Below are positions 5,747-34,162 of a DNA stretch of 64,000 nt, piece by piece. The position numbers and the translations under genes were made by a program. Below the pieces are notes generated by a model, which was given only the letters and a program-made list of their open reading frames with translations, did no database searches and was not told the origin of the DNA. Source of the stretch: Candidatus Micrarchaeota archaeon (GTDB lineage: Archaea > Micrarchaeota > Micrarchaeia > Anstonellales > Bilamarchaeaceae). The stretch lies in the NCBI GenBank assembly GCA_016932815.1, contig JAFGCC010000014.1, positions 80,129 through 144,128 on the forward strand. The letters run 5' to 3'. Numbering within the stretch: position 1 is the first letter of the stretch; the number at the start of each line of letters is the position of its first letter.

Positions 5747-5774
5747 CCGGTTGCACCTAAACTAATAATACGCA

Positions 5775-7348: not shown

Positions 7349-7387
7349 CTGAATCGCACCTAAACTAAAAGATGCATAAAAGAAGAT

Positions 7388-7417
7388 ATAAATGTTATTG
7401 GGTTGCGCAGGCAGGGA
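7388..7417 (-). promoter_or_regulatory. Putative TATA promoter of the 489-aa paralog (duplicate of the 5775-5804 block)
   Basis: The same 30-bp block lies upstream of both paralogs, including the gcacctaaactaa leader. Confidence 0.5.
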
Positions 7418-7468
7418 TTAAGGAACAGGAGATGTAGCGGTTTGGGAAACTGCCGAACGATGTGGAGG

Positions 7469-10186: not shown

Positions 10187-10198
10187 TCAAATCACCTT

Positions 10199-10936
10199 TT
10201 ATAGCCTGAGCTTCCCGCGCTCGTGCGCGCTCTCATACGACTTGCGCAGGGCTTGTGCCTGGAGCTCGTAAACCTTTTCGCAGGCCTCGATTCCCTCATC
10301 GAGGTTCCGTGCAAGCTCTTCGCGGGTAAGGAGGCCGTCCATCTGGAGGAGGACCAGCTCCTTGCCCTTGCTCGTTATCGCCATTGGGACATCGGACTCT
10401 CCGTAGTTGTCCTCGTCTTTTCCCAAGTCCACTACCAGCTGGCCGTCCAACTTTCCCACTGCGACCCCGGAAACCATCTCCTTCATGGGGATTCCCGCAT
10501 CCGCAAGCGCAACCGCGGCCGCGGTCAGGGCGCTTACCCTGGTTCCGCCTTCTGCCTGGAGCACTTCCACGTAGACGTCAATCTGCGTCTTGGGGAACTG
10601 GTTTAGCATCACTACCGGCTCAAATGCCTCGCGGAGCACTTTGGAAATTTCCCTGCTCCTGCGGTTTGGGCCGCTGCGCCCGTGCTCGCTCTTTGAGCAG
10701 AAAGGCGCCATCGTGTAGCGCACTTTCAGCAGCGCCTTGTAGGGGTCTGCCCCGTGCTTGGGGATGCATTCGCGCGGGCCATAAACGCCTGCTACGACCT
10801 TGTTGCCGCCCCATTCCACGTATGCGGAACCGGAGGCTTCCTCAAGCACTCCCGCCTCAATCTTGAGCGGGCGGAGCTCCTTGGGAGTCCTTCCGTCAAT
10901 CCTTTTTCCGTCTTTAAACAATTCCGGCTTATCCAT
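10199..10936 (-). CDS. rrp41: Exosome complex exonuclease Rrp41 (RNase PH-like, catalytic)
   Basis: RNase PH motifs are present (DGRTPKELRP, GSAYVEWGGNKVV, TRVSALTAAAVALADAGIP). Confidence 0.9.
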   Translation of the reverse strand: MDKPELFKDGKRIDGRTPKELRPLKIEAGVLEEASGSAYVEWGGNKVVAGVYGPRECIPKHGADPYKALLKVRYTMAPFCSKSEHGRSGPNRRSREISKVLREAFEPVVMLNQFPKTQIDVYVEVLQAEGGTRVSALTAAAVALADAGIPMKEMVSGVAVGKLDGQLVVDLGKDEDNYGESDVPMAITSKGKELVLLQMDGLLTREELARNLDEGIEACEKVYELQAQALRKSYESAHERGKLRL

Positions 10937-12428: not shown

Positions 12429-12710
12429 ATTTCCCACGTTGTTGCTTAAAGCATCAAACAATGACACTTTTCTCAAGTGCCGCCAAAAATGAGCAGGCGG
12501 TTTTGTTTTCACTCAGACTCTTTAATTTATTATAGATGTGTTTATAAACGTTGCTAATTGCCCCCTTCCGGTTTGCATGGGCATTTTGCGCATAAATATG
12601 TTGGCGTGGCGAAGAAGGGCGGGCGGGGGCTTTCCCCCTTCTTCCATTTTTCCATCCTGCCGAGGGCAGCCGGCATAAGCTTTTTATCCGTTGCCACAGA
12701 AACGGGAGGT

Positions 12711-17769: not shown

Positions 17770-18555
17770 TTATAGGATTTCCTTTCCCTTTAGCTCGTTG
17801 CCGCGGATTACCGTGTAGCCTAGCGACTTGTCGGTGAGGGAAACGAGTATTGCGGATTCTCCGTCCTTTATGGCGAGCCAGGAGTGGCTCTCGCTTTTTC
17901 CATAGCCGAATTCGGGGTGCCTGCACTCCCTCCCTAAGGCTTCTGCGAGGTTTATCCCCACCCTTTGCTCCCTGCGTATTACAAAGAGGGTTTTGGGGGT
18001 GCAGATTGCCGCAGCGTCCTTGTCCACTACGGTGCATGAGATTGGAAGCGTGTGCCCGGGTTTTGCCCCCGCGCCCAATTCAACCTGCGCGCTGCGGCGC
18101 ACGCCTTCCTCGTTTATGAATACGTAGGCGCCTGCGGGAAAATCAAGGAGCAAAAAATTCTTTCCGATTGCGCTTGCGCAATAGCTTTCGGAGAGGGCAA
18201 AACCAAGGGGGTAATCCTGGGAATAAACCCCGAATGCCTCTTTTTCAAGTACCAATTCCAGCAGGACGACCTTCTTTGAGCCTGGATTTAGTATGTAGGC
18301 AAAATAGTCGCCATCCCCCGCGCTGCAGGCAATTAGCTTTGCCTTTGGGTGGAGGGGGCCTGTTTCAAAATCGTTTGGGTTTATGATTTGGAGGAGCCCT
18401 TTTTTAGGGTTTTTGAGCCCGATCATCCCGGAATCCACTTCTATTATTAGTTCGCCCACTTTTTCGGAAGCGCAGACTTCCCCGCGGGAGTAGGAGGATA
18501 CCCAGGATTCTAGCATCTTCCAGCTTACATGCTCATCCATTGGAAATTCCTCCAT
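17770..18555 (-). CDS. Hypothetical protein (262 aa from the internal ATG MEEFPMDEH...)
   Basis: Coding-like composition. A TATA box (CTTTTATATC on the coding strand) lies about 45 nt upstream of the ATG at 18555. No family was recognised. Confidence 0.55.
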   Translation of the reverse strand: MEEFPMDEHVSWKMLESWVSSYSRGEVCASEKVGELIIEVDSGMIGLKNPKKGLLQIINPNDFETGPLHPKAKLIACSAGDGDYFAYILNPGSKKVVLLELVLEKEAFGVYSQDYPLGFALSESYCASAIGKNFLLLDFPAGAYVFINEEGVRRSAQVELGAGAKPGHTLPISCTVVDKDAAAICTPKTLFVIRREQRVGINLAEALGRECRHPEFGYGKSESHSWLAIKDGESAILVSLTDKSLGYTVIRGNELKGKEIL

Positions 18556-18696
18556 GCGGGCAAAGGGAATTGCCTGCGGGATAAATGAGGGCTCCGTTGG
18601 GAAGGGAGATATAAAAGGTATGGGGGGGCTTTTGCACACGGGAAACTACGGGAGCATCCACCTGGATTTGCACAGATATCAAATGTCTGGGCGCCA

Positions 18697-20099: not shown

Positions 20100-22067
20100 C
20101 TACTGCTCAACCCAGTTTACGAAAACCTTGCCGCCTTTGCGGTAGATAGGGCGGATTAGCTCCCCTTCCCCTGTGAGTTCAAAGGAGGTAATCCGGGTGC
20201 GGAGTTCGGGCGCAAAAAGCGTTGCGCCCCATGTTCTGGAGATGCGCGGGCCGATTGATTCTTTTCCCTTGCCAGTTGAGCACGAATTGAGCACAATCGT
20301 AAGGTCCTCGGAGAAGAGGGGGCGGAGCGCCCTCATCTCGGCCTCATCTGTCAAATCCAGGAGGCTTTCTTCTGAGCTTCCGGGGCCCAGGCGGATTGAA
20401 TCCGCGGTTCCGTGGGCGCCAATCATCAGGGCGCTTATGCCGAAATACTTTTCACCGAATTTTTCGGCTTTTTCATAGAACTCGCGCTCGTTTTCCGCTT
20501 CCACAAATATTATGTTGTAGTATCCTTTTTCCACAAGCTCCCTGCGGACTCCGAACATCTGCGCGTCGTAGAGGACTCCGATGTCGTCGTATTTGCCCTG
20601 CATTACCAAAAGAAGGGGGCGGCCATCCGCCTTGTCCCCGATGTGCCCATAGAGGGATTCCAGCTCTTTTTTGGAGTATCTTGCGAAGTATTCTATCCCG
20701 AACTCGTTGTAGAGTTCCCTTGTTTTCTGTGCCCCGATTGTGCCTTGTGCGTATGCGAAATTTATGAAGACTTCGCGGTCTTCTATTGTCACTCCGGCTT
20801 CACGCGCGAGCTTCCTTCCCGCCTTCCACTTGCCCTTGTAATCCGAGAGGTTGCCTATCAGGGCTTTGGCAGGGATTTTATCCGGATTGTCCAGTAGGGA
20901 GAGCACTTCCTTCACGTTCTCTGGCTTCCCGGTTTTCTCCGCTTCGCTTAAAGTGAGGAGGATTAGGGAGTAGGCTGAGGCTTCTGCGAGTTTTGTTATC
21001 CTGGAGGGGTCAAGGGATAGTTCCTTTGCGACTAGCCTTTTGGACATGAGGCCGAATGCCGCCTCCTTCTTCCTTCCGCAGATGCGGCAGGCCTCTTCAA
21101 AAATGCCCGCAACCTTTGCGGGGTCTTTTGCGAATTCCGCTCCAAGGGGCCTTAGGGCGGAGAAGGCGTATTCCGCAGCCTCCCCGGCGGCCCGCCCTAT
21201 CCTCACTAGTGCATCGGTTACCTTTTTTGGGTTTTTTGCAAATGCCATCGCCACTTCTTCGCTTCCTATTACGCGGAATGCTTCCCAGGAGGGGCCTCCT
21301 CCTGCGCTCTTTCCTATGCGGGAGAAAAGGCTTGCCACCCTTGAGGGGTTTTCTAAGAACATGGGGAATATGCCTTCGCGCTCAATTGCCCAGAATGCGG
21401 TGCCTGCGGCATCCCCCGCCGCTTTGCCTATCCTGCGCAATGCCCTTGAAATGTTCGCGGGGCGTTTTGCGAATTCCCTGGAGGCATCCTCGCTGGCTAG
21501 TGCCCAGAACGCCTCTGGGGCATGGGTGCCTATGCGGGCGAATGCGTCCGCAACCAGTTTTGGGTTGCGGGCGAATGCGGTGGCTACGGGCTCCTGGGAG
21601 AGCAGGAAAAATGCCCCCTCCCTGGATTTTGCAGCAACGCGCCCTATCCTTGCGAACGCTGATGCTATTTTGGCAGGGTCTTTGGAGAATGCGCTGGAGA
21701 GTTCGCGGTTTGAGAGTGCTGCGAGGGCATCCGGAGTGCCTTCCCTTGCTGCCCTGGATATCATGAAGAACGCGCCGGGGTGGAGGGTTAGGAGCCTTGA
21801 GAGGCCCTCGTCGCTGAAGCGGTTTAGGGCGGCTTCCGAATTTTCCCCGGAATGGGAGATTATCTTTTTTAGGGTGTGCGCAACCCTGTTTAGCCGCTGG
21901 AAGTTGCCGGTTTTGAGGATTGCCTGCGCTATTTGGGGCGGAAGTTGTGCTCCCACCCTCTCTTCTAGCTCCCTTTGCACGTAATCCGGGGTGAGAGTGG
22001 GGGTGGCCAGGAGCCTTCCGCTTAACCTGGCATCGTGGGTGCGCCCTTTTAGTTTTCCGCTGGACAT
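20100..22067 (-). CDS. Helical-repeat / caspase-like (CHAT-like, clan CD) domain protein, family member A (655 aa)
   Basis: The N-terminus has ...LTPDYVQRELEE, followed by at least seven ~35-aa repeats (AFAKNPKKVTDALVRIGRAAGEAAEYAFSAL). The C-terminal domain carries REVFINFAYA, GIEYFARYSKKELESLY, RPLLLV, YNIIFVEAENEREFYEKAEKFGEKYFGISALMIGAHG, then ~45 aa, then LTIVLNSCSTGKG. Confidence 0.85.
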   Translation of the reverse strand: MSSGKLKGRTHDARLSGRLLATPTLTPDYVQRELEERVGAQLPPQIAQAILKTGNFQRLNRVAHTLKKIISHSGENSEAALNRFSDEGLSRLLTLHPGAFFMISRAAREGTPDALAALSNRELSSAFSKDPAKIASAFARIGRVAAKSREGAFFLLSQEPVATAFARNPKLVADAFARIGTHAPEAFWALASEDASREFAKRPANISRALRRIGKAAGDAAGTAFWAIEREGIFPMFLENPSRVASLFSRIGKSAGGGPSWEAFRVIGSEEVAMAFAKNPKKVTDALVRIGRAAGEAAEYAFSALRPLGAEFAKDPAKVAGIFEEACRICGRKKEAAFGLMSKRLVAKELSLDPSRITKLAEASAYSLILLTLSEAEKTGKPENVKEVLSLLDNPDKIPAKALIGNLSDYKGKWKAGRKLAREAGVTIEDREVFINFAYAQGTIGAQKTRELYNEFGIEYFARYSKKELESLYGHIGDKADGRPLLLVMQGKYDDIGVLYDAQMFGVRRELVEKGYYNIIFVEAENEREFYEKAEKFGEKYFGISALMIGAHGTADSIRLGPGSSEESLLDLTDEAEMRALRPLFSEDLTIVLNSCSTGKGKESIGPRISRTWGATLFAPELRTRITSFELTGEGELIRPIYRKGGKVFVNWVEQ

Positions 22068-22090
22068 CCGGTATGGATAGCTGCGAAGCA

Positions 22091-22100
22091 GTATATAATC
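22091..22100 (-). promoter_or_regulatory. TATA box (gtatataatc) about 25 nt upstream of family member A's start
   Basis: The same (G)TATATAA consensus recurs upstream of family members B, C, D, F and G. Confidence 0.45.
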
Positions 22101-22221
22101 TTATTGCATGGGCAGGCTTTGCTCCTAATCCCAAAGGAAGAGAAGACCTTGGGAGCAGATGCAGGAGAAAAGGGGCAATGCCGCATGGGCGCGGTTCGGA
22201 GGGGGTTTTGGGCTGGGAGTG

Positions 22222-24321
22222 TTATTGCGCATCCTGCCCTGCAAGGGGCTCTCCGCGCAGGAACCTGGTGCCTCCGGATTTGTATACTACGTTAAGTATT
22301 TTCCCTTGTTCGTCCCGCTCCAGTTTTTCTAGGTAAGTGTGGGAGCTGGGCGCAAAAAGCTCGGCTCCCCAGAGCTGGGATATCTTCGGGCCTATGCCCT
22401 TGGCTGTTAGGCAGGATTCCAGGATTATTAGGGGCTCGCCTACGAACAGGCCGTTTAGGGCGCGCATCTCCTTCTCGTCTGAGAGGTCGATGAAGTTGTC
22501 CTCTGACTCCCCTGGGCCCATGCGGATGTCCCTTGCGGTGCCGTGCCCGCCTAGTATGAGCGCGCTTATGCCAAAATACCTCTCTCCCAGCTCTTTTGCC
22601 TTCCTGTAGAACTGCTCTTCGGTTTCGGCCTCTATGAATATCGTGTTGTAGTAGCTGCCATTGCCTGCAAGCCCCTCTCTGGCCTTCGCCCCTCCGTAGA
22701 AGGCCTGTATGTCGTCGAACTTGTTGTAGGCTACTAAAAGGAGGGGGCGGTCGTCTCCGTTTTCCCCTATTTGCCCATATAGGGATTCAAGCTCCTCTTT
22801 TGAGTATCTTGCGAAATACTCAATTCCGAATTCCCTGTGTATTGCGATTGTTTTTTCCCTGCCTATCTTGTCCTGGGCGTAGGCGAAATTGATGAAGACT
22901 TCGCGGTCTTCTATTCCCACTCCGGCTTCGCGGGCTAGCTCCCGGCCCGCTTTCCAATGGTGGCGGTAATCGGTGAGCGGGGTTATGCCATAGACTGCAA
23001 AGAGGCGGTGAGGGTCGTCTAGGGCACTTAGCATTGATTCGATTGAATCGCGGTCGCCCCTCTTGAACGCGTCGCGGAGGTAGTAATAAACGTCCGTCTG
23101 GGAGAACGCTTCTGCAAGCCTTACTATCTTTTGGGGCTGCTCCAGGAACTCCCTGCCCCCAAAACCCTTGTGGGCTAGCGCGAAATAGAAGGAGAAGAGG
23201 AGCTGCTGCTTCCTTCCCGATATTTTGGAGGCTTCTATGAACGAATCCACCATTCCCATGGGGTTTTTGCAGAAGCTGTTGATGAAATCCCTGGAAGATA
23301 TGACTTCAAAGGCGCTCTTGAGTGCGATTCCGCGGGTGTTTCCGAGCTTTTCTAAGGCGTATGAGATGCCTTCTATGTTCTTTGAGAAGGGCGCGCTTGC
23401 CCATTGCGCGCAAAGCTTGGAGAAAGCCCTGCCGGAGTAGCCTCCCATTGAGTTGGCTATGCGGGCAAACGATTCCGCGGTTTTTGAGGGGTTTTTGGCG
23501 AATTCGATTGAAACTTCCCTGGTGGATAGGAGCAGGAAGGCGTCCACTGCGGCTTCCCCCAATGAGCTTGAGATTTTTTCGAACGCGGATGCGATTTCTT
23601 CTGGGTTCTTGGCGAATGCAAGTGCGGCTTCCCTGCGCTCCAATACGGAGAATGCATCGGAGGCGTTCTTGCCCGATGCTAGTGCGATTCTTGAGAGGGC
23701 CAGGGAGATTGCTTTGGGGTTCCTGGCGAATGCTGCTGAGAGGGGCTTGCTGCCTAGGAGCCAGAATGCTCCGGAGGAGTGGGCGCCTGAGTCCCTGATT
23801 ATGCTGAGGAATGCGGAGGAGATTGCTTTGGGGTTCTTGGCGAATGCTCCGGAGATTCCGGTTGTTGATAGTGCCCAGAGGGCTTCTGCCTTGTTCGCTT
23901 TTGCAGCCTTGCAGATTTCGGCTATTGCGTTGGATACCCCCGTGGGGTCTGCTGCGAATGCGCGGGCAACCGCATCCTGCTTTAGGGTGTCTAGGGCGCC
24001 AAGGAATTCGTCCTTTGCTGCGGCGCAGATTCTTGAAAATGCCTGGGGGCTCTTCGAGATTTCCCTGGAGAGGTTTTCATCCCTGAATTCCTTTAGGAAG
24101 GATTCGATGCCGGCTCCGCTGGATTCGCAGATTAGCTTTATTGCGCGGGCAACCTGCCCCACCTTCTGGGGTTCGCAGGTGAGGGCGACTGCGCGGGAGA
24201 GCTGGGGAGGGATTTTTACGCCCAGCACTTTCTGAAGCTCGGCGTGGACGTAGCTGCGGTTGAATGAAGGCGAAAGTGAGAGCTTTCCGTTTTTTTCCCG
24301 CACGCACGCTTGAGTGGACAT
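22222..24321 (-). CDS. Helical-repeat / caspase-like domain protein, family member B (699 aa; Cys motif variant ESCLTAKG)
   Basis: The N-terminus has KLSLSPSFNRSYVHAELQK, followed by AFAKNP/AFARNP repeats. The C-terminal domain carries REVFINFAYA...GIEYFARYSKEELESLYG...RPLLLVAYN...YFGISALILGGHGTA...LIILESCLTAKG. Confidence 0.85.
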   Translation of the reverse strand: MSTQACVREKNGKLSLSPSFNRSYVHAELQKVLGVKIPPQLSRAVALTCEPQKVGQVARAIKLICESSGAGIESFLKEFRDENLSREISKSPQAFSRICAAAKDEFLGALDTLKQDAVARAFAADPTGVSNAIAEICKAAKANKAEALWALSTTGISGAFAKNPKAISSAFLSIIRDSGAHSSGAFWLLGSKPLSAAFARNPKAISLALSRIALASGKNASDAFSVLERREAALAFAKNPEEIASAFEKISSSLGEAAVDAFLLLSTREVSIEFAKNPSKTAESFARIANSMGGYSGRAFSKLCAQWASAPFSKNIEGISYALEKLGNTRGIALKSAFEVISSRDFINSFCKNPMGMVDSFIEASKISGRKQQLLFSFYFALAHKGFGGREFLEQPQKIVRLAEAFSQTDVYYYLRDAFKRGDRDSIESMLSALDDPHRLFAVYGITPLTDYRHHWKAGRELAREAGVGIEDREVFINFAYAQDKIGREKTIAIHREFGIEYFARYSKEELESLYGQIGENGDDRPLLLVAYNKFDDIQAFYGGAKAREGLAGNGSYYNTIFIEAETEEQFYRKAKELGERYFGISALILGGHGTARDIRMGPGESEDNFIDLSDEKEMRALNGLFVGEPLIILESCLTAKGIGPKISQLWGAELFAPSSHTYLEKLERDEQGKILNVVYKSGGTRFLRGEPLAGQDAQ

Positions 24322-24353
24322 TCGGTTACCCTAATTGGGAATTATGGCGTAAA

Positions 24354-24366
24354 GGATATATAATTG
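24354..24366 (-). promoter_or_regulatory. TATA box (ggatatataattg) upstream of family member B
   Basis: It lies about 35 nt upstream of the ATG at 24321. Confidence 0.4.
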
Positions 24367-24405
24367 TATTCGCCTTGAGGGGAAAACGTGCGGGCACTGA
24401 GGGGC

Positions 24406-26409
24406 TCAGGGGGAGAGCTCGACGCCGTCTATGAACAGGCCCTCGTCCACGTTGTAGATTGGCCCGGTAATCCTTCCCTTCTCATCCAGGTCGAACCCCA
24501 GTATGTCTGCTGGCTGCTTGGGGGCAACCAGTTCGGCATCCCATGCATCCGAAATGCGCGCGCCTATTGCCTTCTCGTCCTTGCCCGTTGAGCAGGAAGC
24601 GAGGAAAACCCTTGCATCATCTGCGAAGAGGCCTTTTAGCGCCTCTAGGTCCTTCATGTCCAGAAGGTTGAGGAAGTTTCCTTCGGGCGTGCCGTTTAAG
24701 CCGGGGCCCAGGCGTATGGACTTTGCGGTGCCGTGGCCGCCTATCATGATGTCGCTTATTCCGAAATACTTTTCCGAGAATTTCTTTGCCTTCTCGAATA
24801 GTTCCGCCTTGTTTTCGGCTTCCACGAATACGATGTTGTAGTGCCCTTTCCTCTCGAGGATTTCGCGCTCGCCGACTATCTCGGGCAGGTAGAACACGTT
24901 GGTGTCGTCCGATTTGTTGTAGGCAATTAGGAGGAGGGGGCGGTTGTCCTCCGTTTCCCCAATGTGCTCATAGAGGTCTTCGAGTTCTTCCTTGGAATAC
25001 CTAGCAAAATACTCGATTCCGTATTCGCGGTAGATTGCCTTGGTTTTTTCCGCGCCTATGTTCTCCTCTGCGTAGGCGAAATTTATGAACACTTCCCTGT
25101 CTTCTACCCTAACCCCGGATGCTTTCGCAAGGGCTCTTCCCGCTTCCCATTCCGAGCGGTGCAGGAGGAGGCTGGTAATTGCGGTCTTGGCAAGTTCGGA
25201 TGGGTTGTCGAGCAGGCGGCTTATCTGCTTCGCTTCGGCAGGGTCATCGTTCTTGACCATGTCAATTACCGTGCGGAGGATTGGGGTGTAGGTGGAAGCT
25301 TCTGCGAGCTTGGCTATGCGGGTGGGGTCTGCGGCCATTGCCTTTCTTAGGGGCCCATAGAGGAGCATTGAGAACATCCTTATGTTCTTCCTTCCGCATA
25401 TATCTGCGGATTCTACGAATGCATCTGCCAGCTGCGAGGGAGTTGCGAACTTGCCCCCTATGAATTCCTCGGTGCAGATTACCCCCATGGCGTATTCTTT
25501 GCCTAGCCCGTTGGACTCGGATATCCTGGAAAATGCGTCGACGACTCCATCCATGTTTTTTGCAAAATGCTCTATGACTCCCTTCTTGCCCAGCCTGGTG
25601 AAAATCCTGCCCGAATACTCTCCGGAGGCTTCGACTATGGAAACGAAAGTGTCCGCAACCTGCGAGGGTTTCTTTCCAAAGAGGGGCGCTATGTCCCTGC
25701 TTCCTAGGAGCCAGAATGCATCTCCTGAATGTGCGCCTGCGGCCGTGCCTATGTCTTCGAGGGCCTTGGTCGTTTGCTCCATGTTTTTTGCGAATGCTTT
25801 GGCTATTGGCAGCCTTCCTAGTGCCCAGAATGCATCGCCTGCGTGAGTGCCTGCTGCGATTCCTATGCGCTCAAGGGCGTGGCCGGTTTTGTCCATGTCC
25901 TTTGCGAATGCCGCTGCTATTGGCTTCCTTGCAAGAGTCCAGAAGGCGTCGCCCTGGTGGGTTCCCGCCTCCCATGCTATGCGCACAAAGGCATCGGTTG
26001 CCTTTTCCGGGTTCTTTGCGAATGCGCGGGAAATGTCCTCCTGCTTTAGGGCGTCGAATGCTTCTTTTGTGCCCTTCTTGGCCGCTTCGGATATGGAAAC
26101 GAAGGATTCGGTGTGGGATACGAAGGATTTTGCGAGGGATTCGTCTTCGAAGCAGTTTACCGCGTGCTCTGATTCCATCCCGGAGTATTCTATTATGTTT
26201 TCGAGGGCTTCTGCGATTTCGCGGACCTTTGAGGCCTGCCCGGTTTCGACTATTGCGTTTGCTAGCTCTTCTGGAACTTTAGTGCCCACCATCTTTTGGA
26301 GTTGCTCCTGCACATACGAATTGTCAAGGGAGGGCGCCATTGCGAGCCTTCCGATTGGTTTTTCGCTCTTTTCCTCTTTTTCGGCGAACTTGGGCATTTT
26401 TGCATCCAC
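24406..26409 (-). CDS. Helical-repeat / caspase-like domain protein, family member C (667 aa; GTG start at 26409 or ATG at 26397)
   Basis: The N-terminus has RLAMAPSLDNSYVQEQLQK, followed by repeats (AFAKNPEKATDAFVRIAWEAGTHQGDAFWTL). The C-terminal domain carries ...IGGHGTAKSIRLGPG...VFLASCSTGKDEKAIG. Confidence 0.85.
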   Translation of the reverse strand: MDAKMPKFAEKEEKSEKPIGRLAMAPSLDNSYVQEQLQKMVGTKVPEELANAIVETGQASKVREIAEALENIIEYSGMESEHAVNCFEDESLAKSFVSHTESFVSISEAAKKGTKEAFDALKQEDISRAFAKNPEKATDAFVRIAWEAGTHQGDAFWTLARKPIAAAFAKDMDKTGHALERIGIAAGTHAGDAFWALGRLPIAKAFAKNMEQTTKALEDIGTAAGAHSGDAFWLLGSRDIAPLFGKKPSQVADTFVSIVEASGEYSGRIFTRLGKKGVIEHFAKNMDGVVDAFSRISESNGLGKEYAMGVICTEEFIGGKFATPSQLADAFVESADICGRKNIRMFSMLLYGPLRKAMAADPTRIAKLAEASTYTPILRTVIDMVKNDDPAEAKQISRLLDNPSELAKTAITSLLLHRSEWEAGRALAKASGVRVEDREVFINFAYAEENIGAEKTKAIYREYGIEYFARYSKEELEDLYEHIGETEDNRPLLLIAYNKSDDTNVFYLPEIVGEREILERKGHYNIVFVEAENKAELFEKAKKFSEKYFGISDIMIGGHGTAKSIRLGPGLNGTPEGNFLNLLDMKDLEALKGLFADDARVFLASCSTGKDEKAIGARISDAWDAELVAPKQPADILGFDLDEKGRITGPIYNVDEGLFIDGVELSP

Positions 26410-26434
26410 CTTCTGCGATAGTTACTGTGGTAAA

Positions 26435-26445
26435 GGGTATATAAG
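26435..26445 (-). promoter_or_regulatory. TATA box gggtatataag upstream of family member C
   Basis: It lies about 30 nt upstream of 26409. Confidence 0.45.
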
Positions 26446-26497
26446 AATATTAGCTTTTTGGGTTCCCGCAAACGGCCTGCCGATTTTGGGGGGAGGA

Positions 26498-28174
26498 TTA
26501 TTGCTTGCCGGGCATTTCCTTGCCCCGCAAGAATTTCCTTCCGCCTTCTGCATATAGCACACCGGAGATGCTGCCATCATTGTTGAGCACGAATTCCTCC
26601 ACATAAGTGGGGACTGCGGGGGCAAAGAGGTATGCGCCCCAGGCAGATGAGATGGCGGCGCCTATTGCCTTCTCGTTTGCTCCCGTGGAGCAGGAATCGA
26701 GTATTACCCTGGGATTTTCGGCAAAGAGCCCGTGGAGTTTTTTAAGCTCTTCTATGTCCGAGAGGTCCAGCTTGTTTTCTTCAGAGTCTCCAGGGCCCAG
26801 CGCTATGCTGTCTGCTCTGCCATGCCCGCCTATTATGAGCACGCTTATGCCGAAGTACTTTTCCCCGAATTTCCTTGCTTTTTCGTAGAACTCCCCTTCG
26901 GTTTCGGCTTCAAAGATGATGACGTTGTACTTGTTGTGCTTGCCGCCCCCCGTTAGCGGTGAGCGGGTTACCATGTCCCCATAGAAGCCCCCGTTGCGGT
27001 CGGACTTGTTGTTTGCAATTAGGAGGAGGGGGCGGTTGTCCTCTTTTTCCCCGATGTGTTCATATAGGGATTCAAGCTCTTTTTTGGAATACCTTGCGAA
27101 ATACTCAATTCCGTATTCGCGGTAGATTGCCCTGGTTTTCTGCGCGCCTATTGTTTCCTTTGCGTAGGCGAAATTGATGAAGACTTCGCGGTCTTCGAAA
27201 GTTATGCCTGCTGAGAATGCGAGGTCCCTTCCCTCTTCCCACTTGTCCCTGTAATCCGGGAGGCAGCCCATGCCGTATTCTTCGATTAGCGTTTCGGGGC
27301 TATCGAGCAGGGAGAGCAGGACGCGCACCTCCCCTTTTACCGCAGCCTCGCCCTTTTGATCAACGTTCTCCTGGGAAACTGCTTCCTTGAGGGAGTAGAT
27401 GAGGCTTGAGTATGCTGCGGTTTCGGCAAGCTTCTGGAGCTTGTTGAAATCTTTTGTGAAATCCCCTTCTACGAATTTCGCCAGGCCGAATGCCGCATCC
27501 ATTACGGATTTGCGCCTCCTTCCGCAGAGGCGGGAGATTTCGGAGAAGGTTTCGGCCGCTTTTGCGGGGTTTTTCGCAAACGCTTCTGCGAAGGGAATGA
27601 GCGTCCAGAATGCGTATTTGGACTCCGCCCCATACGTGTTGAATATGCTTGCAAATGCCCTGGATACTTCTTCGGGGTTTTTTGAGAATGCCTCTGCGAT
27701 TGGTTCGAGATTGTGGAGGAACATCAATCCCTGGGGGTTGAATGCCTGGGAGGTGTCTTTGCGTGTGGCCTCTGCTATCCTCACTATGGCATCGGTTATC
27801 CTCTTGGGCTCCTTGGAGAATTCATCCTTGAAATGGAGCACCACCTTGAATGCCTCTGCGGGGAGGCCCATTGCGGCTTTTGCCATTCTTGCAAACTCTT
27901 TTGGGTTTGCAACGAGCATTGCTGAGAGGCCTTCGTCCTGGAAGAGTGCGAGGGTTTCTTTTGCTTTGTTGCCCGCAGAAATGCTTATCTGCTCAAGGGC
28001 GTCGGAAACCTTCCTCAGCCTGGATGGCTCCCCGGTTTTTACTACATCCTCTATTAGCTGTTCTGGGACCCGCGGGAGGCTTGCCTCAAGCTGCTCCCTT
28101 ACGTACTCCGCTTCGAGTGCGGGCTTTAATGAAAGCCTGCTCCCTGTTTTCTTGCGGGCACTTTTTTGCACCAT
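26498..28174 (-). CDS. Helical-repeat / caspase-like domain protein, family member D (558 aa, the shortest repeat array)
   Basis: The N-terminus has SRLSLKPALEAEYVREQLE. The C-terminal domain carries ...IIGGHGRADSIALGPG...VILDSCSTGANEKAIG. Confidence 0.85.
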   Translation of the reverse strand: MVQKSARKKTGSRLSLKPALEAEYVREQLEASLPRVPEQLIEDVVKTGEPSRLRKVSDALEQISISAGNKAKETLALFQDEGLSAMLVANPKEFARMAKAAMGLPAEAFKVVLHFKDEFSKEPKRITDAIVRIAEATRKDTSQAFNPQGLMFLHNLEPIAEAFSKNPEEVSRAFASIFNTYGAESKYAFWTLIPFAEAFAKNPAKAAETFSEISRLCGRRRKSVMDAAFGLAKFVEGDFTKDFNKLQKLAETAAYSSLIYSLKEAVSQENVDQKGEAAVKGEVRVLLSLLDSPETLIEEYGMGCLPDYRDKWEEGRDLAFSAGITFEDREVFINFAYAKETIGAQKTRAIYREYGIEYFARYSKKELESLYEHIGEKEDNRPLLLIANNKSDRNGGFYGDMVTRSPLTGGGKHNKYNVIIFEAETEGEFYEKARKFGEKYFGISVLIIGGHGRADSIALGPGDSEENKLDLSDIEELKKLHGLFAENPRVILDSCSTGANEKAIGAAISSAWGAYLFAPAVPTYVEEFVLNNDGSISGVLYAEGGRKFLRGKEMPGKQ

Positions 28175-28207
28175 TTTCGAATCCTCCTAAGGTAAATAGC
28201 TCAGAAA

Positions 28208-28219
28208 GGGTATATAATG
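28208..28219 (-). promoter_or_regulatory. TATA box gggtatataatg upstream of family member D
   Basis: It lies about 35 nt upstream of the ATG at 28174. Confidence 0.45.
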
Positions 28220-28260
28220 CTAACTTCTGCGGGGGCGCTTGCCCTTGAGGGATGCGGGAG

Positions 28261-30147
28261 TCATTCTTTTTCCGCTGCGCGCTTCCCATTTTTGAAATGC
28301 GAGCGCCTAGAATAGTATTGCACGTCCGTTATGCGGCCATCCCCATCCCGGATTACTTCCTTCATGTTGGTTGGGAGCTTGGGCGCAAAAAGCTCTGCTC
28401 CCCAGAGGCGGGAGATTAGGGCGCCTACCGCTTCTTCATTGGCCCCTGTTGAGCAGGAATCGAGGATTACGAGGGCTTCTTTTGCAAAGAGCCCATGCAG
28501 TCCCGCCATCTCGGCTTCGTCGCGGAGGTCCAGGAAGTTCTCTTCCTGCCAGCCCGGGCCGAAGCGGACTGAACCTTCCTCCCCATGCCCGCCAATCCAG
28601 AGCGCGCTTATGCCGAAGTATTTTTGCGAGAATTTTTTTGCCAGCTCGTAGAATTCGTATTCGCTTTCGGCTTCGAAAAAGATTACGTTGTAGTGGCCGT
28701 CTTCGAGCATGGGCTTTCTTACCTTCCTTGAGAGGGAGTGGTAGAATGTCCCGTTGAAATCGTTCTTGTTCTGCGCAATCAGGAGGAGGGGGCGCTCGTC
28801 TGTGCGCTCTCCTATGTGGTCATAGAGGTTTTCGAGTTCCTCCTCGGAATATCTTGCAAAATACTCGATTCCGTATTCCCTGTGGATTGCTTTTGCCTTC
28901 TGTGCGCCTATTGTTTCCTTTGCGTAGGCGAAATTGAGGAAGACTTCCTTGTCTTCGATTGTTACTCCCGCTTCTAATGCGAGCTTCCTCCCCTCCCTCC
29001 ATTGCCCCCTGTATACGGGGAGGGTGCTCAGCTTGTATTCGCTTTCGAGTTTATCCTGGTCATCCAGGGCGGCTACCGTGCCTGCTATTGAGCCTGTATC
29101 CTTCTGCATTATGTGCTTCTCCAGGTGGTAGAGGATATTCGTGTAGGTGGAGGCTTCTGCAAGCTCAAGCGCCCTTGAAGCATCCCTCATAAGGGCATCT
29201 GCGATTTTATCCTCTTTTAGGAGCTCAAAGAACTGCCCCGCCCTCCTGCCGCAGGTTTTGCACATCTGCACGAACATGGCGGAAACCCCTTCGGGGTCCG
29301 CGTAGAAATCTCCCGTGAATTTTTCGAGCGCGTAGAATGCGGCGCCCGCGTGCTCGCCTGCGGCATTGAATATTTCGGATATTGCGCCTGAGAGCATCAG
29401 GGGTTCGCTTGCAAAAAGTTCTGTGAGTAGCGGCATCGGGGCGCCTTTTTTGAGGCTTCCCTTGTTCATTACGTAGAAAGCGTAAGGGGCATTCTTGCCC
29501 CCTGCATTGGCTATTCCGGCTAGTGCGGTTGCATACTTTATGGGGTCTTTTGCGAATTCTTCCCGGATTCCGTTTTTTTCTAGGAACCAGAACATGAAGG
29601 TCTTGTCTTTTAGGCGGGGCGCGCACAGGGCGGAAAACGCATCCATCATCCTATTAGGGCCCCAGGCGAAAGAGGCTGCAACTTCATCCCTTGAGAGGAG
29701 CCGGAAGGCATCATCGGCATCCCCTTTTGCGGCTTTTGCTATCTTTACAAAATACTCTGCCGTTTTCCCGGGACCTGCTTCGAAAACCATCGCGATTGGC
29801 TCTTTTCGGAGCGCCATGAATGCCTGCCTTGCCGCTTCCTTTGCGGCTTTTGCCATTTTTACGAACTCTTCTGGGTTTGCAACGAACATCCTTGCTAAAT
29901 TCTTGTCTGCTAACACGCGGAGGGCGGATTTGGGCTTGCTGCCCGTAGCCTTCGCTATTTTTGAGAGGGAATCGCGGATTTCCCGTATCTTGGAGGTGTC
30001 TCCGCTCTGGGCAACTTCCTTTGAAACGGCATAGGGAACGTAGCCCGCTGCGCCTTTGAGCTGCTCTTCCACATAACTTATTTCGAGTGCGGGCTTTAGG
30101 GAAAGCTTTTCGCTTTTTTCTTGTTTGCGGAGTTGCCTGCCTGCCAT
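28261..30147 (-). CDS. Helical-repeat / caspase-like domain protein, family member E (about 628 aa; alternative upstream ATG at 30171 overlaps the stop of member F as ATGA)
   Basis: MAGRQLRKQEKSEKLSLKPALEISYVEEQLK aligns with the N-termini of members F and G. The C-terminal domain carries ...IGGHGEEGSVRFGPG...VILDSCSTGANEEAVG. There is no separate TATA box; it is probably co-transcribed with F. Confidence 0.8.
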   Translation of the reverse strand: MAGRQLRKQEKSEKLSLKPALEISYVEEQLKGAAGYVPYAVSKEVAQSGDTSKIREIRDSLSKIAKATGSKPKSALRVLADKNLARMFVANPEEFVKMAKAAKEAARQAFMALRKEPIAMVFEAGPGKTAEYFVKIAKAAKGDADDAFRLLSRDEVAASFAWGPNRMMDAFSALCAPRLKDKTFMFWFLEKNGIREEFAKDPIKYATALAGIANAGGKNAPYAFYVMNKGSLKKGAPMPLLTELFASEPLMLSGAISEIFNAAGEHAGAAFYALEKFTGDFYADPEGVSAMFVQMCKTCGRRAGQFFELLKEDKIADALMRDASRALELAEASTYTNILYHLEKHIMQKDTGSIAGTVAALDDQDKLESEYKLSTLPVYRGQWREGRKLALEAGVTIEDKEVFLNFAYAKETIGAQKAKAIHREYGIEYFARYSEEELENLYDHIGERTDERPLLLIAQNKNDFNGTFYHSLSRKVRKPMLEDGHYNVIFFEAESEYEFYELAKKFSQKYFGISALWIGGHGEEGSVRFGPGWQEENFLDLRDEAEMAGLHGLFAKEALVILDSCSTGANEEAVGALISRLWGAELFAPKLPTNMKEVIRDGDGRITDVQYYSRRSHFKNGKRAAEKE

Positions 30148-30167
30148 GTTTATTCCACCTTGGATTT

Positions 30168-32261
30168 TCATTCCTCTTCCGGGCGGGGAATTTCCTGCCC
30201 GTTTTTGAAGCGGATGTTTCCTTCGAAGAATACCGCGCCTTGTATGCGGCCCTCACCATCCAGCACGATTTCCTTTAGTGCGGTAACCTGCCTCGCCGCA
30301 AAGAGGTCTGCGCCCCAGAGCCGCGATATTATTGCGGCTATCCCTTTGCCGTTGGCTCCCGTGGAGCAGGAATCTAGGATTACAAGCGGGTTTTCGGCAA
30401 AGAGGCCGCGGAGCTGCCCCATCTCCTTTTCATCTGTGAAATCAAGGTAACGCTCGTCTCCTTCGCGCGGCCCAAGCTCCATGCTGTCGGAGGTTCCGTG
30501 CGCGCCAATCATCAGGGCGCTTATTCCGAAGTATTTTTCCCCGAATTTCCTTGCCTGCGCGTAGAATTCCTGCTCGGTTTCGGCCTCAAAAAAGATTACG
30601 TTGTAGTGGCCTTTTTCTAGTAGCTGCCCCCTTAGTTCGTGCCTTCCGTAGAAGACTTTTGTGCCATCGGACTTGGGGTAGGCAACCAGGAGGAGGGGGC
30701 GCGCATCCTCCCTCTCCCCTGCGTGCTCGTATAGGTTTTCGAGCTCGTTTTTTGTGTATCTTGCGAAATATTCAATCCCGAATTCGCGGTGGAGCGCGAG
30801 GGTTTTCTTTTTGCCGATTGTGCTTTCTGCGTATGCGAAATTTATGAAAACTTCCTTGTCTTCAATACTGATTCCGGCTTCGCGGGCGAGCTTTTTTCCC
30901 TCCCCCCACTTGTTCTTGTATGCTGCAAGAGTGGGGATTCCCAGTTCCCTGGAGAGTTTTACGGGGTGCTCAAGCATCCCAAGGAGCCTGGAGAGTTCAT
31001 CCTTCTTTATGTCCGCTAATGAATCGAGCTCGCGCACTATCGAAGTATATGCCATTGCGTCTGCAAGCTTTACCGCCCTGCGGATGTCTTCTGCGATGAA
31101 TGCGCTGACTGCTTCCCTGCACAGTAGTGAGTAGAGGCGGTTGGTGTTCCTGCCTGCTATTCCAAATGCCTTTGAGAAGATTTCTGCAAAGCGCTTTGGG
31201 CTTTGCGCAAACGCCCCATCGAAATCCGACAATGCCGCAAACACGTATTTCCTGTCTTCCCCGGTTGCTTCTGCCAGCTTTATGAATGCATCCACTGACT
31301 CTTTTGGGTTCTTTGCGAATGCGTATGCGAAACCCTCAACCGAGAGCAGGGAAACCGCCCCCGCTATTCCTTCCCCCACGCCTTTTGCAAGCCTTGCAAA
31401 CTCTCCAGGGTTTTTGGCAAGGAGGGCGGATACTGCCGGGTTGAGAAGGAGGGCCCCGAATACTTCATCTGCCATGCCGCCCGAAGATTTCCCCATCTGC
31501 ACAAACGCATCGGTAACTGCGCCGGGATTTTTTGAGAATGCTGCTGAGAGCTCTTTTTTCCTGAGAACGGAAAACGCCAGGCCTGCGTTTTCCCCCGTTG
31601 CCTCCCTTATGCGGATGAACGCTTCGGCCACCGCTTCGGGCTCCCTTGCGAATGCGCGGGTGATATCCGTTGTGGCCAGTGCGGCGAACGCTTCCTTGGA
31701 ATAGTAGCCCGCGGATTCTCCCACCCTGGAAATTGAGGATGAGAGGAGTTCCGGGTTTTTGGCAAAAAGCGGGGTTGCCGCCTTGTTCCCAAGAAGCCAG
31801 AATGCGTCTTCTGCGCCAAGGTCTGCTCCGGTTGCCACTTCGGTTAATGCGCGGGAAATCCTTGCCGGGTCTTCTGCGAAGGCTGCTGCCACTTCCTTCC
31901 TGGAGAGAACCAGGAATGCGTCCCTGGAATTCGAGCCTGCGCCCCATATCAGGGATGCGAGGGCGTCCGCGGCCCCGCGCGGATTGCCTGCTAGTGCGCA
32001 CGCTATGCTCTTCCTGCTTAGGATCAATGAGAGTTCATCTGGCCATTCGGATGAAAGATTGGCAAGGCGCGATAGGGCTTCTGCCGCGTGCCCGATTTGC
32101 CGGGGGTTCCTGGATACTTCGGAGACGAGCACTTCGGGGATTTCGATTTCCAAACCAGCACTGCGCACGGCGCCCTCTAGCTGCTCGCGCACGTGGGAAT
32201 GTTCAAGCGACGGGGTTAATGAGAGTTTTTCGCTTTTTTCCCTTTTCTGCTTCATTGCCAT
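30168..32261 (-). CDS. Helical-repeat / caspase-like domain protein, family member F (about 698 aa from MAMKQKREKSEKLSLTPSL)
   Basis: It has the longest repeat array. The C-terminal domain carries ...IGAHGTSDSMELGPREG...VILDSCSTGANGKGIA. A TATA box (gagatataag) lies about 35 nt upstream. Confidence 0.85.
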   Translation of the reverse strand: MAMKQKREKSEKLSLTPSLEHSHVREQLEGAVRSAGLEIEIPEVLVSEVSRNPRQIGHAAEALSRLANLSSEWPDELSLILSRKSIACALAGNPRGAADALASLIWGAGSNSRDAFLVLSRKEVAAAFAEDPARISRALTEVATGADLGAEDAFWLLGNKAATPLFAKNPELLSSSISRVGESAGYYSKEAFAALATTDITRAFAREPEAVAEAFIRIREATGENAGLAFSVLRKKELSAAFSKNPGAVTDAFVQMGKSSGGMADEVFGALLLNPAVSALLAKNPGEFARLAKGVGEGIAGAVSLLSVEGFAYAFAKNPKESVDAFIKLAEATGEDRKYVFAALSDFDGAFAQSPKRFAEIFSKAFGIAGRNTNRLYSLLCREAVSAFIAEDIRRAVKLADAMAYTSIVRELDSLADIKKDELSRLLGMLEHPVKLSRELGIPTLAAYKNKWGEGKKLAREAGISIEDKEVFINFAYAESTIGKKKTLALHREFGIEYFARYTKNELENLYEHAGEREDARPLLLVAYPKSDGTKVFYGRHELRGQLLEKGHYNVIFFEAETEQEFYAQARKFGEKYFGISALMIGAHGTSDSMELGPREGDERYLDFTDEKEMGQLRGLFAENPLVILDSCSTGANGKGIAAIISRLWGADLFAARQVTALKEIVLDGEGRIQGAVFFEGNIRFKNGQEIPRPEEE

Positions 32262-32293
32262 TTTCCTGCGCCCCTGCAATTTAGTGGGGGCAG

Positions 32294-32303
32294 GAGATAT
32301 AAG
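32294..32303 (-). promoter_or_regulatory. TATA box upstream of family member F
   Basis: Sequence gagatataag. Confidence 0.4.
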
Positions 32304-32346
32304 TAGGTTGCGGATTTGATGCCGGAAACCGCCTGCAGGATTGCAG

Positions 32347-34104
32347 TCAGCGCCCAGCCGGCAACTCCTCTCCCTTGTAGAATCTCTTTCCGCCCTCGTT
32401 GTAGGCGGCATCCGTTATCAGGCCCATATCGTCCATGACGAATTCCCTGATGTATGCGGGCACTTCGGGGGAGAGGAGCAGGACTTCCCATGCCTCAGAA
32501 ACTTTCGGCCCTATCGCTTTCTTGCCTTCGCCGGTGGAGCACGAATCCAGTATTACTATGGCACCTTCGGCGAATAGCCCATAAAGGTTCCGGAGTTCAT
32601 CCAGGTCCGAGAGGTCAAGCAGGTTCTCCTCCCTGCTCCCAGGCCCCAGGCGTATGGAGTCCGCACTGCCATGGCCCCCTATTACCAGCACGCTTATGCC
32701 GAAATACTTGTCCGCAAATTTCCTTGTGAACTCATAGAACTCCTGCTCGGTTTCGGCCTCAAAGAAAATGGCATTGTAGCTTTCGGCTGCGATTACCGGG
32801 GCGCGGGTATCTGCTTCGCGGTAGAATGCCCCCGTCTGGTCGCCCTTGTTGCCCGCTACTAACATGAGGGGGCGCGGGTCGCCTTTTTCGCCGATGTGCG
32901 CGTAGAGGGATTCAAGCTCTTCTTTTGTGTATCTTGCGAAATACTCGATTCCGTATTCCTTGTAGATGGCACCGGTTTTTTGCGCTCCGATTGTGTCCTT
33001 TGCGTAGGCGAAATTGATGAAGACTTCGCGGTCTTCACTCGTTACTCCCGCTTTTCTGGCGAGTTTTTTTCCTTGCCGCCATTTGCCCCTATATCCTGCA
33101 AGGCGCGGAATCCCGTATTCGCGGGCTATGTTCTCCGGCTCGTTGAGCATATCCAGCCGTTTGAGGATTTTTTCCTTATCCTTCTCTCCTGCCTCTTCCA
33201 TCCCAAGCAGGAGGGTGGAGTAGGATAGGGCTTCTGCGATTTTTAGGAGCTTGGAGGAATCTGCGGATACTGCCCCGCTGACTGTTTTGTTGGAGAGGAA
33301 GCCGAAGAACGCGGACTTCTTCCTCCCGCATATGCTAGCTGCCTCCAGATAGGTTTCGGTAAAACGCTTCGGGCTTTTGGCAAAAAGCCCCGCGAAATCC
33401 TGCATTCCGAAAAAGTAGGCGCTTGCGCTGTTTCCGGCTTCCTGTGCAATCCTTACGAATGCATCGGTGGTCTCTTCGCTCTTGCCCTCTAATATGGGCG
33501 CATAGCCATTGCGGGTGAGCAGCAAGATGGCCGTGTCCATGGCGGTTCCCGCCGCATGCGCAATGCGGATGAATGATTCGGGCTTTTTGGCGAGGAGGGT
33601 GCGCAAGCCAGAGTCGGTGGAGAGTTCCCTGAATGCCCCGCCCAACGCCGCTTTCGTGGTTCTCCCCAGGGCCACGAAGGCATCCGTGATGGTTTCCATG
33701 TTCGGGGAGAAGGCTAGGGCAATCTCTTTTTCCCCCAGGGCGGCAAATGCGTATCCCGCGTTTTTGCCTGCGGCTTCCCTTATGCGGAGGAACGCTTCCG
33801 CTACTTTTTCCGGCTCCGTTGCGAAGGCCTGGGCGATTTCCGCGCTAGCTAGCGCCGCGAGGGCTTCCTTGGAATACTTCCCCGCGGATTCGGCTATTTT
33901 TGCGAGGGCTTCGGAAACTTCGGCGAGCTTTGCGGGGCTGCGGGTTTTTGAGACCGCGTTGATTAATTCTTCGGGGATTTCGATTGCGGGGCCTCCTTCT
34001 GTGCGCACGGCTTCCTGCAATTGTTTTTGGACATAAGAAGGCTCTATGGAGGGAGTTAGCGAGAGCTTTGCGCTTCCCTCTTTTTCCTTTTGCCTCATTG
34101 CCAT
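32347..34104 (-). CDS. Helical-repeat / caspase-like domain protein, family member G (about 586 aa from MAMRQKEKEGSAKLSLTPSI)
   Basis: The C-terminal domain carries ...IGGHGSADSIRLGPG...VILDSCSTGEGKKAIG. The 100-codon N-terminal extension in the track ORF is unlikely to be real (no conservation, and the TATA box is positioned for the start at 34104). Confidence 0.85.
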   Translation of the reverse strand: MAMRQKEKEGSAKLSLTPSIEPSYVQKQLQEAVRTEGGPAIEIPEELINAVSKTRSPAKLAEVSEALAKIAESAGKYSKEALAALASAEIAQAFATEPEKVAEAFLRIREAAGKNAGYAFAALGEKEIALAFSPNMETITDAFVALGRTTKAALGGAFRELSTDSGLRTLLAKKPESFIRIAHAAGTAMDTAILLLTRNGYAPILEGKSEETTDAFVRIAQEAGNSASAYFFGMQDFAGLFAKSPKRFTETYLEAASICGRKKSAFFGFLSNKTVSGAVSADSSKLLKIAEALSYSTLLLGMEEAGEKDKEKILKRLDMLNEPENIAREYGIPRLAGYRGKWRQGKKLARKAGVTSEDREVFINFAYAKDTIGAQKTGAIYKEYGIEYFARYTKEELESLYAHIGEKGDPRPLMLVAGNKGDQTGAFYREADTRAPVIAAESYNAIFFEAETEQEFYEFTRKFADKYFGISVLVIGGHGSADSIRLGPGSREENLLDLSDLDELRNLYGLFAEGAIVILDSCSTGEGKKAIGPKVSEAWEVLLLSPEVPAYIREFVMDDMGLITDAAYNEGGKRFYKGEELPAGR

Positions 34105-34149
34105 TTGGGACCCCCGTTGCCGGATACGTGCAATTCTTGTGGGGGGAAG

Positions 34150-34162
34150 CATATAAATAAAA
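34150..34162 (-). promoter_or_regulatory. TATA box (catataaataaaa) of family member G
   Basis: It lies about 46 nt upstream of the ATG at 34104, in the divergent region shared with the aIF2-beta promoter (TTTTTAAATG at 34218-34227). Confidence 0.45.

Follow-up and report, generated by a model that had tools for sequence, protein, structure and literature searches.

Seven tandem paralogs joining helical repeats to a predicted caspase-like cysteine-peptidase domain in a Candidatus Micrarchaeota archaeon

A 64,000-nucleotide stretch of the genome of a tiny symbiont, a Candidatus Micrarchaeota archaeon (contig JAFGCC010000014.1, positions 80,129 to 144,128 of the forward strand; hereafter, the window) contains seven intact, consecutive open reading frames (ORFs) on the minus strand, named A to G, coding for paralogous proteins of 558-699 amino acids (aa). 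Each protein joins a basic tail and an array of helical repeats to a conserved C-terminal domain, which is predicted to be a clan-CD (caspase-hemoglobinase fold) cysteine peptidase with an intact His-Cys dyad. The best explanation, to which a probability of about 0.7 is assigned, is that they are soluble solenoid proteins carrying a DUF4347-like clan-CD cysteine protease, with the solenoid as a binding arm.

The array spans positions 20100-34104, when starts are chosen directly 5' of a common N-terminal motif. A profile search with the C-terminal domain retrieved exactly seven copies within the window, in agreement with the first-pass annotation, made from the sequence alone, which had listed seven consecutive minus-strand paralogs of this size. 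In a full-length alignment of all seven proteins, the paralogs are 39-44% identical to A. D is identical to NCBI entry MBN2121921.1 (locus tag JW721_02600) and A corresponds to JW721_02585, both labelled "hypothetical protein [Candidatus Micrarchaeota archaeon]" and located on a contig of 214 kb. No signal peptide and no N-terminal transmembrane or lipobox-like signal was found in the seven proteins. The genes and their main parts are as follows.

20100..22067, minus strand: paralog A, 655 aa (JW721_02585); repeats aa 121-342 (21042-21707); C-terminal region aa 400-655 (20103-20870); His552 codon 20412-20414; Cys596 codon 20280-20282
22222..24321, minus strand: paralog B, 699 aa; seven strong 38-aa repeats 23185-23973; C-terminal region 22225-22998; His593 codon 22543-22545; Cys637 codon 22411-22413, with the ESCLTAKG variant at Cys
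24406..26397, minus strand: paralog C, 663 aa (667 aa from an alternative GTG start at 26409); repeats 25369-26112; C-terminal region 24409-25188; His555 codon 24733-24735; Cys602 codon 24592-24594
26498..28174, minus strand: paralog D, 558 aa, the shortest of the seven; three strong repeats 27503-27823; C-terminal region 26501-27283; His451 codon 26822-26824; Cys495 codon 26690-26692
28261..30171, minus strand: paralog E, 636 aa, without a TATA box of its own; repeats 29218-29895; C-terminal region 28264-29043; His529 codon 28585-28587; Cys573 codon 28453-28455
30168..32261, minus strand: paralog F, 697 aa from the ATG at 32261; repeats 31119-31985; C-terminal region 30171-30950; His588 codon 30498-30500; Cys632 codon 30366-30368
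32347..34104, minus strand: paralog G, 585 aa from the ATG at 34104; repeats 33292-33924; C-terminal region 32350-33123; His478 codon 32671-32673; Cys522 codon 32539-32541

Fold and family of the C-terminal domain

The conserved C-terminal region is about 255 aa long, and every motif previously described for it was found again in the alignment. As had been claimed, His-Gly and Ser-Cys are invariant in all seven copies, at a His-Cys spacing of 44 aa (47 in C), and the residues around the Cys vary, being ESCLTAKG in B and xSCSTG in the other six.

The structure of the C-terminal 256 aa of A was predicted by using an alignment of 22 sequences. The resulting model (predicted local distance difference test, pLDDT, 91.1; predicted template modelling score, pTM, 0.89) consists of two parts, about 80 aa of helices forming a HEAT-like cap, followed by an alpha/beta core of about 170 aa. 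The core is an alpha/beta/alpha sandwich, as in caspases, legumain, gingipain, clostripain, separase and CHAT. It also follows the clan-CD order of the dyad, in which His, usually as His-Gly, precedes Cys, and each lies at the C-terminal end of a core beta-strand: GHG comes after strand 145-151, and SC after strand 186-195, the long core strand that comes next. Submitted to Foldseek, the model independently brought up caspases, Tce1 (target TM-score 0.67) and SAVED-CHAT. We regard the structure prediction as decisive in assigning a predicted clan-CD cysteine-peptidase domain with an intact dyad to the C-terminal region. The fusion of helical repeats to a caspase-like His-Cys domain, proposed from sequence, is upheld, the fold of the model being of the caspase type and not a non-protease one, such as that of a glutamine amidotransferase or an alpha/beta hydrolase.

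The closest three-dimensional relative, with His and Cys aligned, is a DUF4347 protein, the Pseudomonas aeruginosa effector Tce1 (PA0256; PDB 9qpe, chain G; PMC13323088) belonging to a type VI secretion system (T6SS). In a comparison of the family profile with PDB sequences, the window His and Cys align with chain residues H77 and C131 of 9qpe_G (E 0.06), and the same register was obtained by hhalign with the single Tce1-fragment sequence (E 1.3e-4, probability 53%). The resolved part of the Tce1 structure comprises residues 110-310 only (PMC13323088). Provided that residue 110 is the first of the deposited chain sequence, the aligned residues are Tce1 His186 and Cys240, which its authors superpose on the catalytic dyad of TcdB (PMC13323088). 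Solely from superposition on Tce1 and CHAT, we infer that the His and Cys side chains of the window domain would be adjacent in space. Tce1 differs in being a 310-aa bacterial effector, secreted by loading onto Hcp and devoid of a solenoid, whereas the window domain lies C-terminal to a solenoid of 38-aa repeats, in an archaeon without T6SS. Moreover, the match to DUF4347 and Tce1 starts downstream of the helical cap (NFAYA...GIEYFARYS), which remains outside it.

When the seven proteins were scanned with Pfam, sub-threshold matches to DUF4347 (PF14252) were found over the His-Cys segment of A (15.3 bits), E (13.3 bits) and F (17.5 bits), and none in B, C, D and G. A scan of 95 relatives gave matches to DUF4347 at E <= 0.01 in 39 of them (best 3.3e-7), and one, P0040, scored 25.8 bits, above the gathering threshold of the family. 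Since 39 of 95 relatives match DUF4347 and P0040 passes its gathering score, the window domain is best described, as far as profiles tell, as a divergent sister branch of DUF4347, neither CHAT proper nor a member by the Pfam rule. Peptidase_C80 was weakly matched by 2 of the 95 relatives at E <= 0.01, and CHAT is absent from the best 25 of the 31 Pfam families found among them. The earlier label "CHAT/separase-like" thus holds for the assignment to the caspase-type clan CD; the nearest family is DUF4347, Pfam CHAT, C14 and C50 giving no match in the seven proteins.

CHAT proteases, represented by SAVED-CHAT of CBASS-like (cyclic oligonucleotide-based antiphage signalling) systems (PDB 8tl0) and by TPR-CHAT/Csx29 of type III-E CRISPR (PDB 7y83, 7zoq, 7y9x), share with the window proteins the GHG...(S/A)C pattern and the joining of a recognition module to a clan-CD protease. 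The window proteins differ from them by the lack of a Pfam CHAT match, of a SAVED, TPR or CRISPR partner and of any PADLOC match, as well as by a housekeeping neighbourhood; NCBIfam and PADLOC models (the latter at E <= 0.1) found nothing in the seven proteins. They differ from TPR-CHAT also in the repeat, a 38-aa unit made of a short and a long helix. Separase (C50) and Raptor likewise combine a large alpha-helical repeat region and a caspase-fold domain in one polypeptide, the domain being C-terminal in separase, as in the window; unlike the window proteins, they are eukaryotic single-copy regulators, without sequence similarity to them, and the Raptor domain is N-terminal and inactive. The C80 domains of MARTX RtxA and TcdA/TcdB, related to DUF4347 according to PMC13323088, have the clan-CD fold and the His-Cys dyad, but they find no match in the window proteins, and their activation by inositol hexakisphosphate (InsP6) is an adaptation to eukaryotic hosts.

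The size of the family was evaluated by an exhaustive profile search of 1.84 billion cluster representatives, which returned 4,646 matches at E <= 1e-3, 2,459 at 1e-10 and 312 at 1e-30. Word-indexed homologue searches gave 20 and 4 matches only; the rarity that they suggest is an artefact, since about 4,600 clusters emerge from the exhaustive search. A scan of genome contigs, seeded with the seven-copy alignment, found no match, and a scan of metagenome contigs a single distant relative (L008, Ga0180430_10003294, 10001-10600, 32% identity). No paper describing the family, or linking Micrarchaeota or DPANN archaea to it, was found by a literature search.

Conservation was counted on 177 domains from 171 fetched proteins, 170 of which matched the profile. 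The His is kept in 171/177 domains and the Cys in 168 of the 170 that cover its column, so the dyad is retained in nearly all relatives; the Asp of LDLSD (D175 of the model, D574 of A) and the Arg of FARYS (R64, R463 of A) are kept in 170/177 and 173/177 domains. Among the exceptions, P0021 (1291 aa, from a Logan contig) contains three protease-like domains in one chain, only the third of which is intact; in domains 1 and 2, His and/or Cys is missing (WATGK...; GGAGQ.../SAALVG), which makes the chain a combination of pseudo-protease and protease. In P0008 (L001, 1034-2371) and P0009, the N-terminal tag is present, GGHG is replaced by AGER or AGEK, and the reading frame stops within the contig, short of the Cys strand; both appear to be inactivated or truncated versions.

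Six of 20 proteins looked up in clusters were named, three of them (P0022, P0032, P0055) as Candidatus Micrarchaeota/Micrarchaeia and the other three as bare "hypothetical protein". All four GTDB genome matches belong to Candidatus Micrarchaeota/Micrarchaeia, and more distant matches include one bacterial (Eisenbacteria) and one Woesearchaeota protein. Wherever the looked-up proteins and genome matches name an organism, it is from Micrarchaeota/Micrarchaeia, and the family, large and without a name, is found mainly in Micrarchaeota. The genomic contexts of further relatives that were inspected are archaeal and housekeeping, without a conserved partner gene. An N-terminal transmembrane or lipobox-like signal is present in 24 of the 171 relatives (for example P0004, P0006, P0010-P0013, P0015, P0087 and P0095); the frequent occurrence in these 24 of a lipobox-like ...(L/F)(C/G)GC after a hydrophobic start suggests that some family members are surface-anchored.

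Tail, repeats and transcription signals

The proteins begin with a basic segment, with a net charge of 0 to +4 over the first 25 aa and the consensus KLSLxPSLExSYVxEQL, in which the K/R-rich segment with LSLxPxLExxYVxEQL of the first-pass annotation is readily recognized in the full-length alignment. The KLSLxPxLE tail is limited to the subfamily nearest the window genes (16/171 proteins). It is followed by repeats with a period of 38 aa (114 nucleotides, nt) and the consensus RDIAAAFAKNPEKVADAFSRIGKAAGEAAGDAFWALS, established by an iterated repeat hidden Markov model. Strong copies number six in A, seven in B, five in C, three in D, three to four in E, six in F and three in G, and degenerate units are found besides. 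Two-helix units in variable number, as first described, are thus real, with a period of 38 aa instead of about 35.

A full-length model of A (pLDDT 86.8, pTM 0.79) shows residues 1-21 as disordered (pLDDT below 50), then a continuous all-helical solenoid and a helical linker to the protease domain. In each 38-aa unit, a short helix of about 9 residues precedes a long helix of 14-26 residues. The units match neither HEAT, TPR and ARM nor any other Pfam repeat family in the seven proteins (E <= 1), which confirms that they are not recognisably TPR or classic HEAT. Six artificially joined copies of the repeat consensus, scanned with Pfam, also gave no HEAT, TPR or ARM match; they produced additive artefacts only (Pec_lyase_N, phage TAC and others), which were discarded. 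The closest likeness is to HEAT and PBS-lyase HEAT-like repeats (alpha-Rep, HEAT_2), which are two-helix alpha-solenoids too: the motif at the junction, EDREVFINFAYAxxTIGxxKT, is similar to the alpha-Rep/PBS HEAT-like consensus in the comparison of the profile with PDB sequences, and some relatives have HEAT_2 in the same position. The N-terminal module is in fact interchangeable among relatives, which carry HEAT_2 (3.6e-33 in P0039), ankyrin, ARM, DUF4116 or unclassified repeats.

Bona fide HEAT_2/PBS-lyase HEAT-like repeats (Pfam 4e-37) are found in a 442-aa protein without a protease domain, encoded at 38533-39861 on the plus strand, about 4 kb from the array. In another Micrarchaeota genome (L005/L006), faint HEAT_2 proteins flank the solenoid-protease gene.

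The TATA-like boxes upstream of the genes are listed here, with the position of their centre relative to the start.

22092..22098, minus strand: TTATATA, upstream of A, centred at -28
24357..24363, minus strand: TTATATA, upstream of B, centred at -39
26438..26444, minus strand: TTATATA, upstream of C, centred at -44
28211..28217, minus strand: TTATATA, upstream of D, centred at -40
32296..32302, minus strand: weaker box TTATATC, upstream of F, centred at -38
34151..34157, minus strand: weaker box TTTATAT, upstream of G, centred at -50

TTATATA occurs six times in the whole window, on both strands, and four of these occurrences are the boxes of A to D. TATA-type boxes 5' of six of the seven starts are in place, as first reported, at a distance of 28-50 nt; the leaderless status then given to the transcripts is uncertain, because GGAGG/GGTGG-like (Shine-Dalgarno-like) motifs are located between box and ATG in B, C and D. 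The coupling of E to F is borne out by the overlap of the E ATG with the F stop by 4 nt (ATGA, 30168-30171) and by the lack of a TATA box of its own, and the F box probably drives a joint F-E transcript. A scan for sigma-70 promoters and terminators is uninformative for an archaeon.

Age and conservation of the array

Synonymous divergence (dS) among the paralogs is saturated, with a median of about 1.5-1.8 in pairwise comparisons, and the copies must therefore be old. Non-synonymous divergence (dN) is 0.73 in the repeat/N-terminal region, with an amino-acid identity of 33%, and 0.37 in the C-terminal region, with an identity of 56%. The N-terminal part thus evolves about twice as fast as the protease domain, and the diversification of the N-terminal halves against a conserved protease-like domain, already perceived at first reading, is borne out. 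Both parts are under purifying selection, with dN/dS of about 0.41 and 0.25, respectively, values which are rough because synonymous sites are saturated.

At the DNA level, the paralogs are 60-77% identical over the conserved domain. Exact matches between pairs of paralogs reach 41 nt at most, the majority being 14-35 nt. The long identical stretches that had been reported are thus not found, and gene conversion, proposed on their account, was rejected.

On one side the array is flanked by genes for an amidohydrolase and ribosomal P0, and on the other by those for aIF2-beta, aIF1A, a RIO kinase and ArgRS. No effector, CRISPR, cyclase or gasdermin-like gene lies next to it. Orthologues of A, C, D, E and G were found at the same locus in two related metagenomic contigs, L004 and L013. 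L013 contains, in order, ArgRS, RIO, aIF1A, aIF2-beta and the orthologues of G (64% identity), E (54%) and D (65%), the array copies occupying positions 3647-8539; no orthologue of F lies between those of G and E. In L004 the order is C-orthologue (83% over the C-terminal region), A-orthologue (65%), an extra 519-aa copy (3035-4594) and amidohydrolase, without a B-orthologue. The array thus lies between aIF2-beta and the amidohydrolase in relatives also, with gene gain and loss, and the copy-number variation that the first-pass annotation had suggested looking for is present. Orthologues (54-83%) are clearly closer to each other than paralogs (about 40%), so the duplications are older than the divergence of these genomes, after which copies were gained or lost. 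The presence of orthologues at the same locus shows selection for retention of the array.

As to the surroundings, a 289-aa ORF without a Pfam match (17770-18639, minus strand) adjoins the amidohydrolase gene, and a 261-aa gene occupies the equivalent place in L004. A 986-aa protein encoded at 12558-15518 on the plus strand contains NosD/right-handed beta-helix repeats (Pfam 5.5e-47) and is possibly a surface protein. ARAGORN and Rfam found a single RNA gene in the window, a tRNA-Ser (TGA anticodon) at 2378-2465 on the minus strand.

Proposed function and significance

In the favoured explanation, each protein would be soluble and composed of a disordered basic tail, an alpha-solenoid of 38-aa units, a helical cap and a Cys-peptidase domain of about 170 aa. 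The solenoid would act as a binding arm, recruiting a specific protein partner, either substrate or activator, and the C-terminal domain would cleave peptide bonds, with the Cys as nucleophile and the His as general base. Repeat copy number and surface sequence differ between paralogs, which would provide seven binding specificities on one catalytic engine; different specificities are most likely because the paralogs are ancient duplicates under purifying selection. Regulated intracellular proteolysis and action on a host archaeon are candidate settings. Whereas the gene array, its age and synteny, the repeats, the fold and the placement and conservation of the dyad are shown, we infer that the domain is catalytic and that the solenoid serves recognition, and likewise any role in the cell.

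Some observations weigh against this explanation. None of the seven window proteins reaches the DUF4347 gathering threshold (24.6 bits), and none matches Pfam CHAT (PF12770), C14, C50 or C80 at E <= 1. The nearest characterised relative, Tce1, is itself a putative protease, without a toxicity phenotype (PMC13323088). Judging from their sequences, P0021, P0008 and P0009 point to non-catalytic use of the fold within the family. The roughness of the dN/dS estimates belongs here as well.

Three other explanations were considered, in order of decreasing support. The first, which we hold to be rather improbable, sees a self-processing module, acting mainly in cis like the C80 domains of MARTX and TcdA/TcdB, so that, instead of other proteins, it would cut the chain to which it belongs, for example in the Leu-rich N-terminal KLSLxPxLE motif or where solenoid and domain meet, and thereby release or activate the solenoid. 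The cysteine protease domains (CPDs) of such toxins cleave after Leu, and the N-terminal motif, which has conserved leucines, is part of a disordered and accessible stretch (residues 1-21). In addition, the CPD of TcdB is the top structural match of Tce1 and Tce2 (PMC13323088), and C80 is matched by the two relatives mentioned above. However, no C80 match is seen in the window proteins, the N-terminal motif is confined to one subfamily (the 16 proteins above) while the domain is far more widespread, and activation of the InsP6 type is not expected in archaea.

An immune sensor-protease, with every solenoid detecting an invader molecule of its own and turning the protease on, as in SAVED-CHAT, TPR-CHAT (Craspase) and caspase-like systems of the NLR (nucleotide-binding leucine-rich repeat) type, seems less probable still. 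Paralog expansion with faster-evolving repeat arms, and copy gain and loss between relatives, would fit it. Yet none of the seven proteins matches PADLOC models, the neighbours are housekeeping genes and include no effector, CRISPR, cyclase or gasdermin-like gene, and gene conversion is not supported; moreover, the locus is syntenic and orthologous in relatives and its paralogs are ancient, with saturated dS, unlike defence islands, which turn over fast. No link of the array to defence was thus found, and the sensor-plus-protease role first put forward, be it in defence or in host interaction, is still a hypothesis. Finally, a caspase-fold pseudo-enzyme serving as a scaffold on which proteins interact or oligomerise, as is the case for Raptor or c-FLIP, with the window proteins purely as adaptors, is very improbable, because the loss of His and/or Cys in P0021 (domains 1 and 2), P0008 and P0009 contrasts with the retention of GHG and SC in all seven window copies, and of the dyad, together with the flanking small residues typical of active clan-CD enzymes, in nearly all relatives at the frequencies given above.

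A bolder version of the solenoid-guided protease, considered unlikely, is a Micrarchaeota-specific radiation of such clan-CD enzymes acting on the host archaeon. Each repeat arm may then recognise a different host (or symbiont) protein, to be cut by the common protease domain; some relatives may be displayed on the surface through lipobox or transmembrane anchors, and the seven window proteins may be delivered by a route marked by the KLSLxPxLE tag. If true, this would give archaea an equivalent of the protease effectors with repeats that bacterial pathogens possess.

Micrarchaeota, like other DPANN archaea, combine a tiny genome with dependence on a host archaeon; to our knowledge, very little has been learned about how they act on their hosts. 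About 14 kb of this genome, corresponding to seven genes, is spent on one protein design, and the same locus is kept in relatives. The design itself, recognition repeats plus a caspase-fold protease, is already known from separase, TPR-CHAT and SAVED-CHAT; new are a branch mainly in Micrarchaeota, with its own helical cap and type of 38-aa repeat, and the presence of seven ancient tandem copies in a reduced genome. The domain family comprises thousands of sequence clusters, and the members encountered in this analysis all carry the label "hypothetical protein" or no name. Its predicted placement in clan CD, next to DUF4347 and CHAT, provides a testable chemistry, that of a Cys/His peptidase, with defined positions for mutants and with D (558 aa) as a small construct. 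DUF4347, whose first structure dates from 2026, gains an archaeal branch and many conserved positions, and the design of recognition repeats with a caspase-fold protease would be extended to DPANN archaea, offering a tractable candidate protease family for the study of their biology.

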